Sequence record: EU863409
Strand: one strand, 5' to 3'
DNA: 64,000 bases
Origin: Escherichia phage JS10
The notes beneath the pieces are model-generated. The model ran no database searches. It was not told the origin of the DNA and worked only from the letters and a program-made list of their open reading frames with translations. Positions 2,462-16,275 of this stretch are shown piece after piece (the stretch's first letter is position 1; each line of letters begins with the position of its first letter). The translations under genes were made by a program, and so were the position numbers.

Positions 2462-3055
2462 TTACTTAAGTGAATTAATGTAGTCGTCGATATCGGCAGA
2501 AGTCGTATCCATTCCAACTTGTGGGCCTTTAAACGTTTCTACACGTAGCAGGGTATCTTCAATATCAATCTTAGTCAGTGCAGCGATTTCAACCACATCA
2601 TCGGCAGTAGCAATACCAAGGGCAGCCATATTACGAGTTTCACGGATGTACTCGAGCTTAACAGCCAGTTCCTGACGAGAGTCATCAAGTTCCTTGACCT
2701 TCAGTTTAATTTCATTACGCATTTCGATATAATCGTCAGCTTTCTTACGAAGTTGAGTGGCTGTACGACGATAAAGGAGGCCGAGTTTAGCATGTACCTG
2801 AACATCGGCGCCTTCGGCAATCAGTTTACGAATTTCGCGTTCTTTAGAAGCAGCCAGTTGGTCTTTTTCATTTGCCAATGCACGAATGCGTTTTTCTTCA
2901 TTCACAGACTTAACATGAGCAGTCTGGAGTTCGGTAATTTTATCAATCAGGGTAGAAGCAGCTTTAGTATACTGGTCTTCGATTGACAGGTTCTGAGTCA
3001 TTGCGGTACCCAGTTTAGAACGGATGAACTCAACAATTTTCTTTAAAGTATTCAT
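2462..3055 (-). CDS. coiled-coil protein, possibly PspA/IM30-like
   Basis: About 198 aa from Met with SD GAAGGAAA; long charged heptad-like helical sequence; PspA resemblance is compositional only. Confidence 0.4.
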
Positions 3056-3098
3056 AGTATTTCCTTCAGTCGGTTGGTATTTTGTAATCCATGAGGAC

Positions 3099-3128
3099 AT
3101 TATACCCTGTCCTCTGAGGGTTGTAAAC
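3099..3128 (-). promoter_or_regulatory. sigma70-type early promoter (GTTTACA-N17-TATAAT)
   Basis: Minus-strand GTTTACA and TATAAT 17 nt apart, directly upstream of 2462-3055 gene. Confidence 0.5.
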
Positions 3129-3132
3129 ATTT

Positions 3133-3546
3133 TTATTTCATTTTGGCGAGGCAGATTTCATTGGCTTCCCATTGAGCTTGCTTAATAATAGCTTTGGATA
3201 CAGGAACCTTTTGACCATAAGTTTTTGACGTTGAGAGAACAATATATTTGTTTGCCTCATTATGCCAACCTAGTGATTTTTCACCATGACTACCTTTAAC
3301 CACAGCTGACACCTCAACAGAGCAACCACCATCAGAAATCTTGGTTTCTACAATCCATTCATTTCTCTCGGCAGCTTCAATTTCCGATCTCCTTTTTTCT
3401 TCATACATGGCGGCCCAATCAGTTTTTGCCAAGCTGAAAGTAAGAGCTTTCTCTAATTCTTTGGCAGCTTTTTGTTGTTCAGGCGTTAATGAATTGTACA
3501 ACTCTTGCATTTCTTTATCTTCGATATTCATTATGCTCTCCTTCAC
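3133..3546 (-). CDS. hypothetical protein
   Basis: 137-aa ORF with upstream early-type promoter. Confidence 0.45.
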
Positions 3547-10502: not shown

Positions 10503-10510
10503 TATAAATA
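10503..10510 (+). promoter_or_regulatory. late promoter box TATAAATA (gene 53)
   Basis: Exact octamer 28 bp upstream of gp53 ATG. Confidence 0.6.
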
Positions 10511-10517
10511 TTAATAT

Positions 10518-10525
10518 TATTTATA
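10518..10525 (-). promoter_or_regulatory. late promoter box TATAAATA (gene 4)
   Basis: Exact octamer on minus strand 27 bp upstream of gp4 start; divergent with the gp53 promoter. Confidence 0.6.
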
Positions 10526-10537
10526 CTCGGAGGCCCT

Positions 10538-11140
10538 ATGCTCTTCTCATTTTTCGATCCTATCGATTACGAATCAAAAACAGTCAAGCCAGATTCCGGC
10601 TCATTAACAAATGCCGATGTATTGAGCGTGCCGATGACTGATATATTTAGAAATTATAAAGAATACTTTGATAGAGTGGCTAAAAATTATACACTAAAAA
10701 CTTATTATATCAATGGAGCCCCGCGTCCGGAAGAATTAGCCCATCTTCTTTATGGCAATGTCCAATTATATTGGGTTCTACTGATGTGTAATAATATATA
10801 CGACCCGTATTATGGATGGATTACCGGCCAAGAAGCCGCCTACCAAGCAGCCATCCAAAGATATTCTACTGCTGGTGGAAACCAGGTCCTTTACCATGTA
10901 AACGAAAAAGGCGAGAAATTCTGGAATCTTGTCAACACACCAGAAAATCCGTATACTTGGTATGATAAAGGCGATACAGAAAAACGTTATCCTCAATACG
11001 AAGGCCCGTTGGCTGCAGTAGATATTTACGAGGATGCTATTCGCAAAAATGAATATAAGCGTGAAATAAAAATTATAGACCCTAATGATATTGAGTCTTT
11101 TATTTCTGCCCTTATTCGTGAAATGGAGAAAGCCCTCTAA
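10538..11140 (+). CDS. 53: gp53 baseplate wedge subunit
   Basis: 200 aa immediately upstream of gene 5 as in T4. Confidence 0.8.
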   Translation: MLFSFFDPIDYESKTVKPDSGSLTNADVLSVPMTDIFRNYKEYFDRVAKNYTLKTYYINGAPRPEELAHLLYGNVQLYWVLLMCNNIYDPYYGWITGQEAAYQAAIQRYSTAGGNQVLYHVNEKGEKFWNLVNTPENPYTWYDKGDTEKRYPQYEGPLAAVDIYEDAIRKNEYKREIKIIDPNDIESFISALIREMEKAL

Positions 11141-12882
11141 TGATTAACATGTCTGATAATTTAAGTTGGTTCGTCGGTGTAGTTGAAGACCGAATGGACC
11201 CACTCAAACAGGGCCGAGTACGCGTACGCGTCTGGGGTATGCATCCATATGAAAAAGTACAAGGTCCTGTAAAAGGCCTTCGTACAGAAGATTTACCATG
11301 GATGTCGGTATTAATGCCTACATCTTCTGCCTCTGTTTCAGGTATCCAAACCGCTATGACTGGTATGGTCCCTGGTACACAAGTTTACGGACACTTTCTT
11401 GATAAGTGGAAATTAAACGGGCTTGTCCTCGGCACATATGGTTCAGCTTCAAAACAAAAGGCGAATCCAAACGAAGGTTTTAGTGACCCAACAGGACAGT
11501 ATCCGCTTTATTTAGGTAATGATGCCGCTGCACTAAACCGAGGTGGTGAAGTTGGGTATGATGCCACTTCTAACGTAATACAAGATGCAAACACTGATGT
11601 AGGTATTAATCCGGATGGATTAGATTTAAGCCAAGTTAAGCCTGATGATAATCCTAATTTCACAATAGAAAACATGCTTCATCGTGATGAAGGGCTTAGA
11701 CTGAAGGTATATTGGGATACCGAAGGATACCCTACTATTGGTATAGGTCACCTTATTACACCACAACCTATTAGAGATATGAATCAGATAAACAAAATAT
11801 TATCTAATCAAATAGGCCGAGAAGTTAAAGGTAACCCTGGTGCAATATCAATGGACGAGGCTTCCAAGTTATTCCAAGAAGACCTTAAAAAAGTTCAAAA
11901 CGATATAGGCAGGCATAGTGTTGTAGGTCCGGTTTACAATAAAGAAAACCGTTCAAGACAAATGGCTCTTGAAAACATGGCTTTCCAAATGGGTTTAGGT
12001 GGACTTGCCAAATTTAAAACGATGCTTGGCGCAATGCTAGTCGGAGATTATAAGAAAGCATTTGATGCCGCTCGTGATTCAGTATGGTTCAACCAAACTA
12101 AAGGCCGAGCATCAAGGGTATCAATGATTATCCTTACGGGTAATATGGAATCATACGGTATTATGGCCCCTAAAGAAAGAGAATTTAAAGGACGTTCGTA
12201 TAGGATGATTCAAACCTTTGCGGCTCCTGCAAATTCTGACCCAGCCGACCCATGGACTCCGGAAGATACAAGGATTCTTTTTAAAGAACCTGATTCTAGT
12301 TATAAAGGCGAATACCCATATGTCCAAACCATGCAAACTGAAGGTGGGCATATCCAAGAATTCGATAACACCCCAGGGCAAGAACGTTACCGATTAATCC
12401 ACCCTACAGGTAGTTACGAAGAAGTCGCTCCTGACGGACGTAAAACTTCTAAGACAGTAGCCGACGGGTATTATATGACCCAAGGCGATTCCAATACTTA
12501 TGTTGGCGGTAATAATAAAGTCAATATAGGTGGCGATGAAACCTATTATAATATGGCAAACGTTCGACGTCAAACTGACGGTTCTGAAAGCATCCATATT
12601 CGTGGTAATGAAACCAAAACAGTAGAAGGCGACGGGACCCTTATTGTTAAAGGAAATGTTACGGTTATTGTTGAAGGCAATGCCGATATAACTGTTAAAG
12701 GTGATGCAAAAACCTTAGTCGAAGGCAATCATGATTATACAGTAAATGGAAATGTTAAGTGGTCGGTAAACGGAAACGTCGATATGACTGTTGCCGGTAA
12801 TTGGTCTGAAACTATGTCGACTATGAGTTCTATTGCGTCCGGTCAATATACTATTGATGGTTCGAGGATTGACATTGGCTAA
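11140..12882 (+). CDS. 5: gp5 baseplate hub subunit and tail lysozyme
   Basis: N-terminal VGVVEDRMDP...RVRVWGMHPYE, lysozyme segment YWDTEGYPTIGIGHLI, C-terminal beta-helix repeats. Confidence 0.95.
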   Translation: MINMSDNLSWFVGVVEDRMDPLKQGRVRVRVWGMHPYEKVQGPVKGLRTEDLPWMSVLMPTSSASVSGIQTAMTGMVPGTQVYGHFLDKWKLNGLVLGTYGSASKQKANPNEGFSDPTGQYPLYLGNDAAALNRGGEVGYDATSNVIQDANTDVGINPDGLDLSQVKPDDNPNFTIENMLHRDEGLRLKVYWDTEGYPTIGIGHLITPQPIRDMNQINKILSNQIGREVKGNPGAISMDEASKLFQEDLKKVQNDIGRHSVVGPVYNKENRSRQMALENMAFQMGLGGLAKFKTMLGAMLVGDYKKAFDAARDSVWFNQTKGRASRVSMIILTGNMESYGIMAPKEREFKGRSYRMIQTFAAPANSDPADPWTPEDTRILFKEPDSSYKGEYPYVQTMQTEGGHIQEFDNTPGQERYRLIHPTGSYEEVAPDGRKTSKTVADGYYMTQGDSNTYVGGNNKVNIGGDETYYNMANVRRQTDGSESIHIRGNETKTVEGDGTLIVKGNVTVIVEGNADITVKGDAKTLVEGNHDYTVNGNVKWSVNGNVDMTVAGNWSETMSTMSSIASGQYTIDGSRIDIG

Positions 12883-12916
12883 TATTTTACCTATGAGCAC
12901 TGATTTAGGAGATTCC

Positions 12917-13414
12917 ATGGAAGGAGCCTCAATCGATGTTACGTTTACCGCTCAATTAGAAACAAACGAAACATTAGTTGAAATAAATATAACAGAATAT
13001 GAGCCAACAGAAGGCATTATTGTCGATGGGGCTCGTTTATACGGAACCTATGAATCGGTATTCGGATTTTCTGAAGATGCTTTAAAATATCGATTAGGTG
13101 ATGAATTTAAAACAGCAGGTTCATGGAAAGATTTACCAGAGGACAAGAGCACTCAATTATACCTCTGGAAAGCCCCTGGTAATCTTCAGAAGACTTTTTC
13201 CTATACCGTCACATTAATCTATGACTTTCAGGAAGAGTCATCAGGAGGTGATACAGGGAGCTCAGGAGGAAGTAATTCTAGAGCCGGTAACGAAACAGAC
13301 CCTCCTCCAGCACCGGTAAGAAAAACTCTTACTAAGGTTTATACCAAGGTTATAGTGGGTAATTGGAGTCGCTGGGGAGACCAATTAAGAGAATATGTAT
13401 ATGCAAGACCATAG
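12917..13414 (+). CDS. gp5.1-like hypothetical protein
   Basis: ORF after gene 5; start chosen at Met with GGAG SD (12917); positional call only. Confidence 0.45.
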   Translation: MEGASIDVTFTAQLETNETLVEINITEYEPTEGIIVDGARLYGTYESVFGFSEDALKYRLGDEFKTAGSWKDLPEDKSTQLYLWKAPGNLQKTFSYTVTLIYDFQEESSGGDTGSSGGSNSRAGNETDPPPAPVRKTLTKVYTKVIVGNWSRWGDQLREYVYARP

Positions 13415-14015
13415 ATACTTTTACCTATATTGCATAACCAATAAATTAAATGGTATGATTTATGTGGGTGTTCATCAAACAGATAATTTAGAAGATGGAT
13501 ATATGGGGTCTGGTAAGGCCCTTAAAGAAGCCCAAGCCGAACTAGGGATGGATAATTTCGACAAACATATTATTAAATTCTTTGGAACCCAGGATGAGTG
13601 TTATTTAGCTGAAAGAGAAATAGTTAACAAATCCTTCGCAAAGTCTTCTTTAACATATAATATAAAGAAAGGAGGCATGGGTGGTTGGATTGTAAGGAAT
13701 GGATATAAACATACCGAAGCTACTAAAGATAAAATGAGAATTTCCGGTAGTGGATGTAATAATGGATTTTATGGAAAGAAACATTCTGAAGAAACTATAA
13801 AAGCTATTGCCGAAGCCAACTCTAAATGGGAAAGAAAGCCAAATCAAAGGGAAAAAATGTCTAAAAAGCATTCAGGCAAAAACAATCCTATGTTTGGTAC
13901 TGTGGCTCCTAATGCAATAACAGTTAAATACAACGGGGAAGAATATACAAGCATTTCTTCTGCGGCAAAAGCAGCAGGATTATCCACTTCAACATTTAGA
14001 AGAAGGTATCTATAA
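13395..14015 (+). CDS. GIY-YIG homing endonuclease (Seg-like)
   Basis: N-terminal [19 protein letters not shown] (GIY-YIG-like) plus repeated GKKHSEET / [16 protein letters not shown]3-like motifs; overlaps flanking genes. Confidence 0.75.
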
Positions 14016-14308
14016 TGTCGGGCTTAAGTTATAATCAATGCGTAACAGCAGGTCATGAAGCATGGCCTCCTACAGTAATAAATGCCACCCAGGGTAAAGT
14101 ATTTACAGGCGGCATTCCTGTATTAGTCGATGGGGACCCAATAACTCCTCATACAGAAATTAAAAAACCATATGAAACCCACGGTGGGGTAACCCAACCT
14201 AGAACATCAAAGGTATATGTTACAGGCAAAAAGGCTGTCCAAATGGCAGACCCTATTTCGTGCGGAGATACAGTCGCACAAGCCTCATCTAAAGTATTCA
14301 TAAAATAG
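14015..14308 (+). CDS. 5.4: gp5.4 PAAR-like spike tip protein
   Basis: 97 aa directly upstream of gene 6; size and position match T4 gp5.4. Confidence 0.7.
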
Positions 14309-14316
14309 GAATTAAA

Positions 14317-16275
14317 ATGGCTACTCCTACGAATTACCAATTAACAAGAACCGTTAACGCTATCCCAAAAGTATTTGTGGGAGCTACGTTTGAAGAAATT
14401 AAAAAGAATATTATCGATTGGCTTTCCAGCCAGGAAGAATTTAAGGATTACGATTTCGTTGGTTCTCGAATGAATATCCTTATTGATATGCTTGCTTATA
14501 ATACTCTTTATATACAGCAATTTGCTAACACAGCTTTATACGAGTCTTTTATAGGAACAGCAAACCTTCGTTCTTCGGTTGTCCAAGCTGCACAAGATAA
14601 CGGATACCTTCCTAGTTCTAAATCCGCGGCAAAAACAAGTATTATGTTGACCTGTACTCAGGCCCTGAATGAAAAGAATATTCGTATCCCACGTGGTACT
14701 AAATTCTTGGCCTATGCTCGTGATACTTCAGCAGACCCGTATGCTTTTGTTACCACGGAAAACGTTATTGCCGTACGTGATGTTAATAACCAATATCTCC
14801 CTATTGTATCTTTAGCACAAGGTCGTATTATTCGTACTGAACTTAAGTATGACCCTAAAACCCCTATTCTTATTCGTGACCCAGATATCGATAGACAAGA
14901 AGTCAAACTTTATGTCGATGGTGCAGAATGGACTAACTGGACTAATAAATCCATGGTTCATGCTGGTAGTACATCAACCATTTACTATATGCGTGAAACC
15001 GTAGATGGTAATACCGAATTCTTCTTTGGTGAAGGCGTTGCCGAAAAATCAGTTGCGGGCGGTGTATTAGAAGCTAACTATATTGGTGGTTTAAAACCTG
15101 TTAAAGATGCTACCATTGTTATAGAATATCTTCGTACCGATGGTGAAGTTGCTAACGGCGCAGTGGACTTTAGTTATGCGGATTCTTTGGCATATATTAC
15201 GGTTGAAAAAATTACAGAAAACTATGATGGGAATCCGGATTATGTAGGTGCTGATGGTGGTGGTGACCCTGAAGATATCGAACGTATTCGTGAACTGGCT
15301 GTAGTTAAACGCGAAGCCCAGATGCGTGCCGTAACTGGTACGGATTATGATACATTCGTTTCAGAGCGATTTGGTTCTATTGTACAAGCAGTACAAACCT
15401 TTACGGACCCAAATAAACCAGGTTACGCCTTTGTTACTATTAAACCTAAATCAGGATTGTATTTGACTGCGGTTCAACGTGAAGATATCCAAAATTATCT
15501 TTCAGAATTTAACTTGGCGCCTATTACTCCTTCGGTTATTTCTCCAGACTACTTGTTCTTAAAGCATAAAATTAAGGTTTCATATGCACTGAACAAATTA
15601 CAGGAATCCGAACAATGGCTAACGGCTCAAATCCTTTCTCAAATAGACCGTTATTATATTAACGAAGTTGAAATATTCAACCACGGATTTGCCAAGTCTA
15701 AAATGCTGACTTATATTGATAATGCAGACCACAGTATCCTTGGCTCTTCGGCTACGGTAACAATGGTTCGCGAGGTATTAAACTTCTTCAAAACACCTGA
15801 AGCGGGTATTAAATACTATAATCAATACACCAACCGTTCTGTAACTTCTAGTGAATTTGAGTTCGTCCCAACAAACGTATCGGATGATATTAAATCTTAT
15901 AACGTACGTATTGTTGCCACAGATAAAGACGAACGAGGCGATGGTAAAATGGTTATAGGTCCTTTCCGTCCAGGTGATGTAATTGAAAACCAATACATCC
16001 AACCTTATACCGGAGATGACTTCGATAAAATGGCAGCTCCTGCAGACCAATCAGTCTACTATGTTATTGGCGAAATTGATTATTACTCAGACTTTATTTT
16101 CTGGGATATCGCCGCAATAGGCCTTACTTCTGACCGTTTTGAAGTCCAGTCTATTGAACTTTATGCAGGGCCAGACCAAGACAACATCTTTACCAAAGAC
16201 GGTTCTCTAATCGTATTTGAAGATGACCTTCGTCCTCAGTACACAACTATAGAGTTGGAACCAATTACAATATAA
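14317..16275 (+). CDS. 6: gp6 baseplate wedge subunit
   Basis: 652 aa (T4 about 660) in conserved 5-6-7-8 order. Confidence 0.9.
   Translation: MATPTNYQLTRTVNAIPKVFVGATFEEIKKNIIDWLSSQEEFKDYDFVGSRMNILIDMLAYNTLYIQQFANTALYESFIGTANLRSSVVQAAQDNGYLPSSKSAAKTSIMLTCTQALNEKNIRIPRGTKFLAYARDTSADPYAFVTTENVIAVRDVNNQYLPIVSLAQGRIIRTELKYDPKTPILIRDPDIDRQEVKLYVDGAEWTNWTNKSMVHAGSTSTIYYMRETVDGNTEFFFGEGVAEKSVAGGVLEANYIGGLKPVKDATIVIEYLRTDGEVANGAVDFSYADSLAYITVEKITENYDGNPDYVGADGGGDPEDIERIRELAVVKREAQMRAVTGTDYDTFVSERFGSIVQAVQTFTDPNKPGYAFVTIKPKSGLYLTAVQREDIQNYLSEFNLAPITPSVISPDYLFLKHKIKVSYALNKLQESEQWLTAQILSQIDRYYINEVEIFNHGFAKSKMLTYIDNADHSILGSSATVTMVREVLNFFKTPEAGIKYYNQYTNRSVTSSEFEFVPTNVSDDIKSYNVRIVATDKDERGDGKMVIGPFRPGDVIENQYIQPYTGDDFDKMAAPADQSVYYVIGEIDYYSDFIFWDIAAIGLTSDRFEVQSIELYAGPDQDNIFTKDGSLIVFEDDLRPQYTTIELEPITI

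Follow-up and report, generated by a model that had tools for sequence, protein, structure and literature searches.

What lies between genes 5.1 and 5.4 in the baseplate region of Escherichia phage JS10, and how it came to be there, is the question raised by this locus. The 64,000 nucleotides of sequence record EU863409 analysed in this study (the window) contain at this place a 206-aa ORF on the plus strand, at 13395-14015, exactly as described in an initial annotation made from the sequence. We consider it highly probable that this is a free-standing SegC-type homing endonuclease (HE) gene at the 5.1/5.4 site of a JS98-like Dhakavirus, a promoter-less homing cassette that would have been gained by double-strand-break repair. 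The extent of the ORF stands as first given, with one small correction to its probable start codon. The first ATG (13395) yields 206 aa, and the in-frame ATG at 13401 is the likelier start, giving an HE gene at 13401..14015 (+) that encodes 204 aa. This choice follows from the Shine-Dalgarno-like AAGAG at 13387-13391, located 9 nt 5' of ATG 13401, from the N-terminus MQ(D/E)(H/N) found in five of the six closest homologues (in the sixth, P0002, the motif is preceded by two extra residues), and from the public database entry for the JS10 HE, which has 204 aa.

The GIY-YIG N-terminus and the two NUMOD3-like repeats that had been noticed in the sequence were both recovered by Pfam. NUMOD3 was found in two stretches (E=5e-17, 62 bits), along with GIY-YIG PF01541 (E=4.5e-6, 27.3 bits, with a cut-off of 22.6) and SegE_GIY-YIG PF19835 (E=9.4e-7, 29.5 bits, with a cut-off of 25); in PHROGs the protein falls into phrog_314, 'homing endonuclease' (E=6.8e-49). 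Judged by its sequence, the JS10 HE is a member of the GIY-YIG nuclease superfamily and of the SegC lineage of Seg-type free-standing HEs. The public record already has the gene under the name segC, with a 100% identical protein entered as 'segC homing endonuclease [Escherichia phage JS10]', and the SegC family has been experimentally characterised in T4. The JS10 segC protein was also included in a published endonuclease tree (PMC3468402). A 2010 review of T4-related genomes lists the HE genes of JS10 as 'None' (PMC2993671); that census is incomplete for JS10, the ORF being named segC in databases. A SegC-family profile run against the 375 ORFs of 50 aa or more in all six frames of the 64-kb window detected no second Seg-like ORF, and JS10 segC is the sole GIY-YIG Seg-type gene of the window.

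The surroundings are those of a T4-type baseplate operon. The gene order is 53-5-5.1-HE-5.4-6, with the T4 baseplate genes otherwise in canonical order: gp53 (10538-11140), gp5 (11140-12882), the gene 5.1 homologue (12875..13414, +; phrog_1168, E=2.6e-70; start taken from the JS98 annotation), gene 5.4 for the PAAR spike-tip protein (14015..14308, +; Pfam PAAR, E=1.4e-9), and gp6 (14317-16275). The placement between a gene 5.1-like ORF and 5.4 is thereby borne out, gp5.1 being identified by PHROG and PAAR gp5.4 by Pfam. So are the overlaps with both neighbours that had been noted: gene 5.1 ends with TAG at 13412-13414, so that the HE gene overlaps it by 20 nt from ATG 13395 or by 14 nt from ATG 13401, and on the other side the HE stop TAA and the ATG of gene 5.4 (14015) share one A in TAATG. 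The two flanking proteins are close to their JS98 counterparts (98.3% aa identity for gp5.1 and 100% for gp5.4). An Rfam search of 12800-14400 for introns or other RNA families returned only a sub-threshold chance match (20.6 bits against a gathering score of 50), and the HE gene, located between conserved genes without an Rfam intron, is free-standing.

With respect to expression, no late promoter consensus of the HE's own was found. The nearest upstream T4-type late promoter consensus, TATAAATA, is at 10503..10510 (+), before gene 53, and the only plus-strand matches near the HE are those at 10503 and 20490. The TATAAATA boxes before gene 53 are on opposite strands, at 10503-10510 (+) and 10518-10525 (-), 15 nt apart, and across the window the late promoter motif is enriched (19 matches against 8.1 expected). 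The region 12700-14500 has no terminator-like sites, and RNA structure over the HE start region is not significant (z=-0.35). Because there is neither a late promoter of its own, nor a terminator, nor significant structure at the start, the HE most likely depends on the late baseplate message, with translation coupled to gene 5.1 or re-initiated where that gene ends; the polycistronic late transcript presumably starts from the promoter at 10503. An RNA hairpin that sequesters the ribosome-binding site is described for mobE; a similar hairpin at the HE start is unsupported at this z value. A sigma-70-like site at 13989-14016 was considered as a promoter of gene 5.4 and rejected, since its -10 hexamer covers the 5.4 start codon, and such sites are no more frequent than by chance (4 found against 6.0 expected).

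The initial annotation held that the locus would be polymorphic among relatives, and comparison of the 5.1-5.4 interval agrees with this. A 2.2-kb query across the locus found the insert in none of 122 related phage records. With the flanks alone as the query, 53 records matched at ≥80% identity, and among the 41 of them that were listed, 38 cross the 5.1|5.4 junction in one uninterrupted piece, the three exceptions being two records of CLB_P2 and one of CUA3. Phage JS98, whose flanks are ~98% identical to those of JS10, has the empty site CCATAATG, where the 5.1 stop overlaps the 5.4 start. In Tequatrovirus, segC is present in 36 of about 495 close T4 relatives, and in Karamvirus the site is occupied in EnC15 and empty in UFV01 and MY742. 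Presence/absence polymorphism of the 5.1|5.4 HE thus extends over three genera, Dhakavirus, Tequatrovirus and Karamvirus, and JS10 is the only sequenced Dhakavirus with an HE at this junction among the relatives listed. The listed Dhakaviruses are empty here, with Ns at this place in CUA3. Neither a lack of the GIY-YIG domain nor universal occupation of the site, the two outcomes named beforehand as speaking against the annotation, was found. In IMG/VR, there were no close relatives of the JS10 HE protein, and the JS10 version of the 5.1 tail discussed below was absent as well.

The exceptions deserve a separate description. In both CLB_P2 records, the 5.1|5.4 junction is empty and a different HE gene is located between 5.4 and 6; this gene, at 2605-3282 of the Dhakavirus CLB_P2 locus (L002), encodes a 225-aa GIY-YIG HE that is SegE-like by Pfam. 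Since the CLB_P2 gene lies one gene further on while its 5.1|5.4 junction is empty, the Dhakavirus baseplate block has at least two independent HE landing sites. Phage vB_EcoM_CUA3 was considered as a second carrier but is uninformative: its 5.1-5.4 interval has the same length as in JS10, but is filled by Ns, and the N run (about 2284-2913 of its locus, L003) spans the position of the JS10 insert together with the 5.1 tail recoded in JS10. This suggests that the CUA3 record was assembled with a JS10-like genome as the reference and that no reads covered the HE, and CUA3 itself may lack the HE gene.

Alignment with JS98 and CLB_P2 delimits the body of the insertion at 13415..14012 (+) with respect to the JS98 empty site (CCATA|ATG). 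The insert amounts to 601 bp relative to JS98, with boundaries that are ambiguous within the shared ATA, and has a GC content of 34.6% against 40-41% in the flanks. Divergence from JS98 is not limited to the insert, as the 3' tail of gene 5.1 (13369..13414, +) is recoded as well. It carries 13 substitutions in 46 nt, which against a background of 1.7% mismatches corresponds to P≈6e-13; the preceding ~640 nt contain 4 mismatches, any other 46-nt window of the left flank contains at most 6, and the right flank has only two differences in its first 500 nt. Three of the substitutions change residues of gp5.1 (K to R, A to G, and N to D), and the rest are silent. The JS98 tail is AGCAAATGGGCTAATCAACTCAGAGAATATGTATATGCGAGG. 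No phage record holds the JS10 version of the tail, the best matches being segC-positive T4-type phages at 76-78%.

The same pattern recurs between other occupied and empty alleles. Between T4 and T2, there are 8 mismatches in the last 30 nt of gene 5.1, 1 in the next ~230 nt, and none in 155 nt rightward, and between EnC15 and UFV01, 18 mismatches fall into the last 39 nt of gene 5.1, with a right flank that is clean for 74 nt. In three independent HE+/HE- pairs, therefore, the substitution cluster is confined to the last 30-46 nt of gene 5.1. All six occupied alleles out of six end gene 5.1 with TATGCAAGA(C/A)(C/A)ATA(A/G), and all five empty alleles out of five have TATG(C/A)GAG(G/A)CCATAA. 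In JS10, the recoded tail holds AAGAG (13387-13391), both candidate ATG codons (13395 and 13401), and HE codons 2-3 (CAA GAC). The G-to-A changes that are silent in the 5.1 frame (GCG to GCA and AGG to AGA) turn the HE-frame codons CGA GGC into CAA GAC, that is, the conserved Q2 and D3, and the HE+ specific GCAAGA is likewise silent in the 5.1 frame and encodes HE Q2 and D/E3. Furthermore, the Arg codon AGA of the occupied alleles creates the Shine-Dalgarno-like AAGAG or GAGAG, where two empty alleles use CGT. On the strength of the allele signature, of the changes silent in 5.1 that encode Q2 and D3, and of the Shine-Dalgarno-creating AGA, the tail of gene 5.1 carries the HE translation start and travels with the HE. 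It is also likely to abolish the left half of the target site, and we infer that it represents the left half of a disrupted target and/or a co-conversion tract. The recoded tail may, on the other hand, exist only as the HE translation start, in which case it need not confer immunity.

The origin of the cassette is indicated by a disagreement between the HE and its flanks. The HE is slightly closer to the enzymes of Moon and the Karamviruses (57-58% identity) than to T4 SegC (50%), whereas flank identity runs in the opposite direction, with gp5.4 at 93% to the T4 type and 76-77% to Moon and EnC15, and gp5.1 at 74% to the T4 type and 52-54% to Moon and EnC15. Taken together, the cluster of substitutions in the recoded tail, the low GC content of the insert, and this incongruence point to a recent horizontal acquisition of the JS10 cassette from a donor that has not been sampled.

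Two other histories of the insert have to be weighed against gain by homing. The HE could be ancestral to the Dhakaviruses and deleted in all other sequenced members, an account that we regard as very improbable. Homologues occupy the same site in four genera, so the association of the HE family with this site is old, and the divergence of the HE (50-58%) is of the same order as that of gp5.1 from Moon and EnC15. Many independent precise deletions would nevertheless be required, as JS98 and several other phages with ~98% identical flanks have a seamless empty site, and the Dhakavirus empty site, at which the stop of 5.1 overlaps the start of 5.4, is like those of other genera. The 5.1 tail of JS10, which is absent from the phage records and differs from the tails of both JS98 and CLB_P2, the GC content of the insert, lower than in the flanks, and the fact that the HE is nearer to the Moon/Karamvirus enzymes while the flanks are nearer to the T4 type also speak against descent within the genus. 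Still less credible, and hardly worth retaining, is a transposon-like insertion with terminal inverted repeats and a target-site duplication. It was brought to attention by an inverted repeat at the insert ends (13411-13430 and 13994-14013; ATAGATAC...GTATCTAT, 8 nt perfect and 15/20 complementary), for which the chance frequency is about 0.1-1%, and by ATA on both sides of the insert, compared with a single ATA in JS98. Yet the insert encodes no transposase, its only ORF being the GIY-YIG endonuclease, and the ATA duplication is needed for two stop codons (CCA-TAG and CTA-TAA). A recoded flank of 46 nt is typical of co-conversion and not of transposition. None of the five other occupied sites has the repeat, their longest perfect matches being 4-5 nt, and the combination of inverted repeat and ATA duplication was rejected as a transposon signature that is not conserved in other carriers. 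Both arms are HE coding sequence (Arg-Tyr codons), and thus the repeat is probably a coincidence.

A further alternative concerns not the origin of the gene but its present state, namely that the JS10 HE is decaying or already inactive, a fixed remnant that does not cut and is merely carried in the baseplate operon; we consider this unlikely, although somewhat less so than the two histories above. HE genes are expected to degenerate after fixation, and only a single sequenced genome is known to carry this HE. Moreover, E47-L48 (13539-13544) replace K-(Y/H) of the conserved KYG motif (K47E and Y48L), a motif with K in 35 and Y or H in 34 of the 38 relatives; the JS10 HE is the only copy with E47 and one of three without K. 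These two residues could reduce its activity. Against decay, the ORF is full length, without a frameshift or stop, and the positions Y10, Y21, G23, E71 and N87 (the GIY, YIG, Glu and Asn positions), invariant across the 38-relative alignment, are all intact. Neither NUMOD3 repeat is missing, nor is the C-terminal module, and all are modelled with high confidence. Finally, fixation in the genus has not been reached, and homing should for that reason remain under selection.

The AlphaFold2 model (mean pLDDT 87.7, and 95-98 over aa 11-90) divides the protein, in the 204-aa numbering, into a GIY-YIG catalytic domain (about aa 1-95), a low-confidence linker (pLDDT <50 at aa 96-99), two NUMOD3 helices (about aa 106-156), and a C-terminal hairpin with two helices (aa 175-203). 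In a Foldseek search against the PDB, the four best matches are two I-TevI domains, with 1MK0 and 1LN0 at the top (TM 0.65 normalised to the target, probability 0.98-1.00), and according to the model the HE has the GIY-YIG alpha/beta fold. A single-sequence phmmer search against PDB sequences gave no match, and the I-TevI matches needed a family profile, which was built from the alignment of 38 relatives. This profile matched both domains of I-TevI, the catalytic one in 1LN0 (E=1.7e-10), where E75 and N90 are the counterparts of E71 and N87, and the DNA-binding one in 1I3J (E=1.4e-7), at profile positions 114-168. In the profile alignment, the R27 segment of I-TevI is an insertion relative to the whole SegC family, and the family, including the active T4 SegC, has K/R at positions 39, 42 and 43. 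The absence of an aligned R27 would be a trait of the SegC family and not particular to the JS10 copy.

Gain by homing, the reading that we prefer, would proceed as follows. By analogy with T4 SegC and I-TevI, the HE, having no promoter of its own, would be transcribed late within the 53-5-5.1-5.4-6 baseplate message and translated at a low level through re-initiation at the ATG that lies within the final codons of gene 5.1. During co-infection with a relative whose junction is empty (...GCGAGGCCATAATGTC...), this junction would be bound by the C-terminal NUMOD3/helix module, and the tethered GIY-YIG domain would cut near it. Recombination-dependent repair would then copy the HE gene and the adjacent recoded 5.1 tail into the recipient. 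The carrier would be protected from cutting, because the insertion splits the site and its left half is recoded. The I-TevI cleavage motif, CNNNG at 23-25 nt upstream of an insertion site, was considered for this junction and dropped, as T2, the known SegC substrate, has none at that position. The sequence CTCAG is present at -29 to -25 in JS98 and destroyed in JS10. The target site of the JS10 HE is assigned here by comparative inference, together with a one-line table entry (PMC2988022), and should be regarded as putative.

A broader interpretation is possible, which we put forward tentatively: the mobile unit of the SegC lineage would be larger than the 601-bp insert, a composite that includes the recoded 30-46-nt tail of gene 5.1, a gene of an essential operon. 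In this composite unit, the tail may play three roles, being at once the C-terminus of gp5.1, the ribosome-binding site and first codons of the HE, and the left half of the target destroyed for the sake of immunity. The repeated occurrence of the HE+ signature TATGCAAGA, in phages of four genera, would be accounted for by such a unit. If so, the JS10 copy, which alone has E47-L48 and whose donor has not been sampled, could stand for a branch of the SegC lineage that recognises Dhakavirus junctions with a changed specificity.

One lineage of GIY-YIG HEs has settled repeatedly, in at least four phage genera, at the 5.1|5.4 junction of the T4-type baseplate operon. The difference between JS10 and JS98 at this locus is therefore one of a selfish element and not of baseplate function, and the JS98 junction would offer a ready-made test substrate for a second SegC-type enzyme. 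In mixed infections or phage cocktails, JS10 may bias the inheritance of its gene 5.1-5.4 region. The JS10 HE itself is an ordinary copy of a well-known selfish gene of T4-like phages, and its importance is mostly that of housekeeping. What is added here to the public record is the dual-coding recoded 5.1 tail common to carriers in four genera, the evidence that the cassette was recently gained by horizontal transfer, and the two atypical residues of the JS10 copy.

How the JS10 gene relates to known systems can be seen at several distances. Among 5.8 billion proteins, the next best after the identical JS10 entry has 58% identity. The best matches in the phage collection are all located at 5.1|5.4, with 58% identity for EnC15, EnA02 and COW86c, 57% for Moon, and 50-51% for T4 SegC. 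The closest sequenced homologues are thus the HEs of Moon (Citrobacter, Moonvirus), EnC15 and EnA02 (Enterobacter, Karamvirus), and Erwinia COW86c, which are similar to the JS10 HE over their full length of 203-204 aa and share with it the site, the TAATG junction with gene 5.4, and the HE+ signature TATGCAAGA. They differ in belonging to phages of other host genera, and their flanks are more diverged from JS10 than those of the T4 type, as the gp5.4 and gp5.1 identities given above demonstrate. None of them is close enough to be the JS10 donor.

A more distant comparison is provided by I-TevI, the intron-encoded GIY-YIG endonuclease of the T4 td intron. Both proteins have an N-terminal GIY-YIG domain tethered to a C-terminal DNA-binding domain (matches to 1LN0/1MK0 and 1I3J). 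In contrast to I-TevI, the JS10 HE is free-standing and not intron-encoded, and the two are about 20% identical. In the SegC-family profile, a gap of 9 residues falls at R27, the residue changed in the 1LN0 R27A chain, and in this comparison no zinc finger was detected in the JS10 HE.

The closest characterised relative is T4 SegC, even though its amino acid identity to the JS10 HE is only about 50%; in tblastn against T4 records, the match lies at the 5.1/5.4 interval with 50-51% identity and 97-99% query coverage. The description of the gene as a free-standing Seg-like mobile element in the baseplate block can consequently be sharpened to SegC-like. T4 segC is a free-standing gene for an active GIY-YIG endonuclease, inserted at and targeting 5.1/5.3 (PMC2988022), and its site, when placed ectopically, is cut efficiently in vivo (PMC3016281). 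It was described as a promoter-less cassette with a 20 bp overlap with the upstream ORF that is probably translated by ribosome scanning, and the same review proposes that it is expressed from the late message, its translation being coupled to that of gene 5.1 or re-initiated where gene 5.1 ends (PMC2988022). The T4 reference (AF158101.6; 2001-2596 of locus L004) splits this stretch into segC (140 aa) and gene 5.3 (56 aa), where SHFML-11 and further T4 records have a single ORF of 196 aa; the records differ by one C in GGGCCTAGAGGG(C)CTAGAGG, an indel near 2405. Given this single-C difference and the continuous ORF elsewhere, 'gp5.3' is the C-terminal DNA-binding part of SegC, and the T4 reference contains either a frameshift or a sequencing error.

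Compared with T4 SegC, the JS10 protein has ~14 extra residues, which make up a full first NUMOD3 repeat that is missing in the T4 type, and deviates from the KYG motif by E47-L48; at the 3' end, the overlap of the T4-type gene with gene 5.4 amounts to 13 nt, while the JS10 gene stops at TAATG. In other respects, the two systems coincide. Both are inserted at 5.1|5.4 with a 20-nt overlap with gene 5.1, have the conserved N-terminus (M-x-)MQDH, and follow the domain order GIY-YIG, NUMOD3 and C-terminal module. Both genes are promoter-less within the late baseplate operon, and in both cases a minority of close relatives carries segC.
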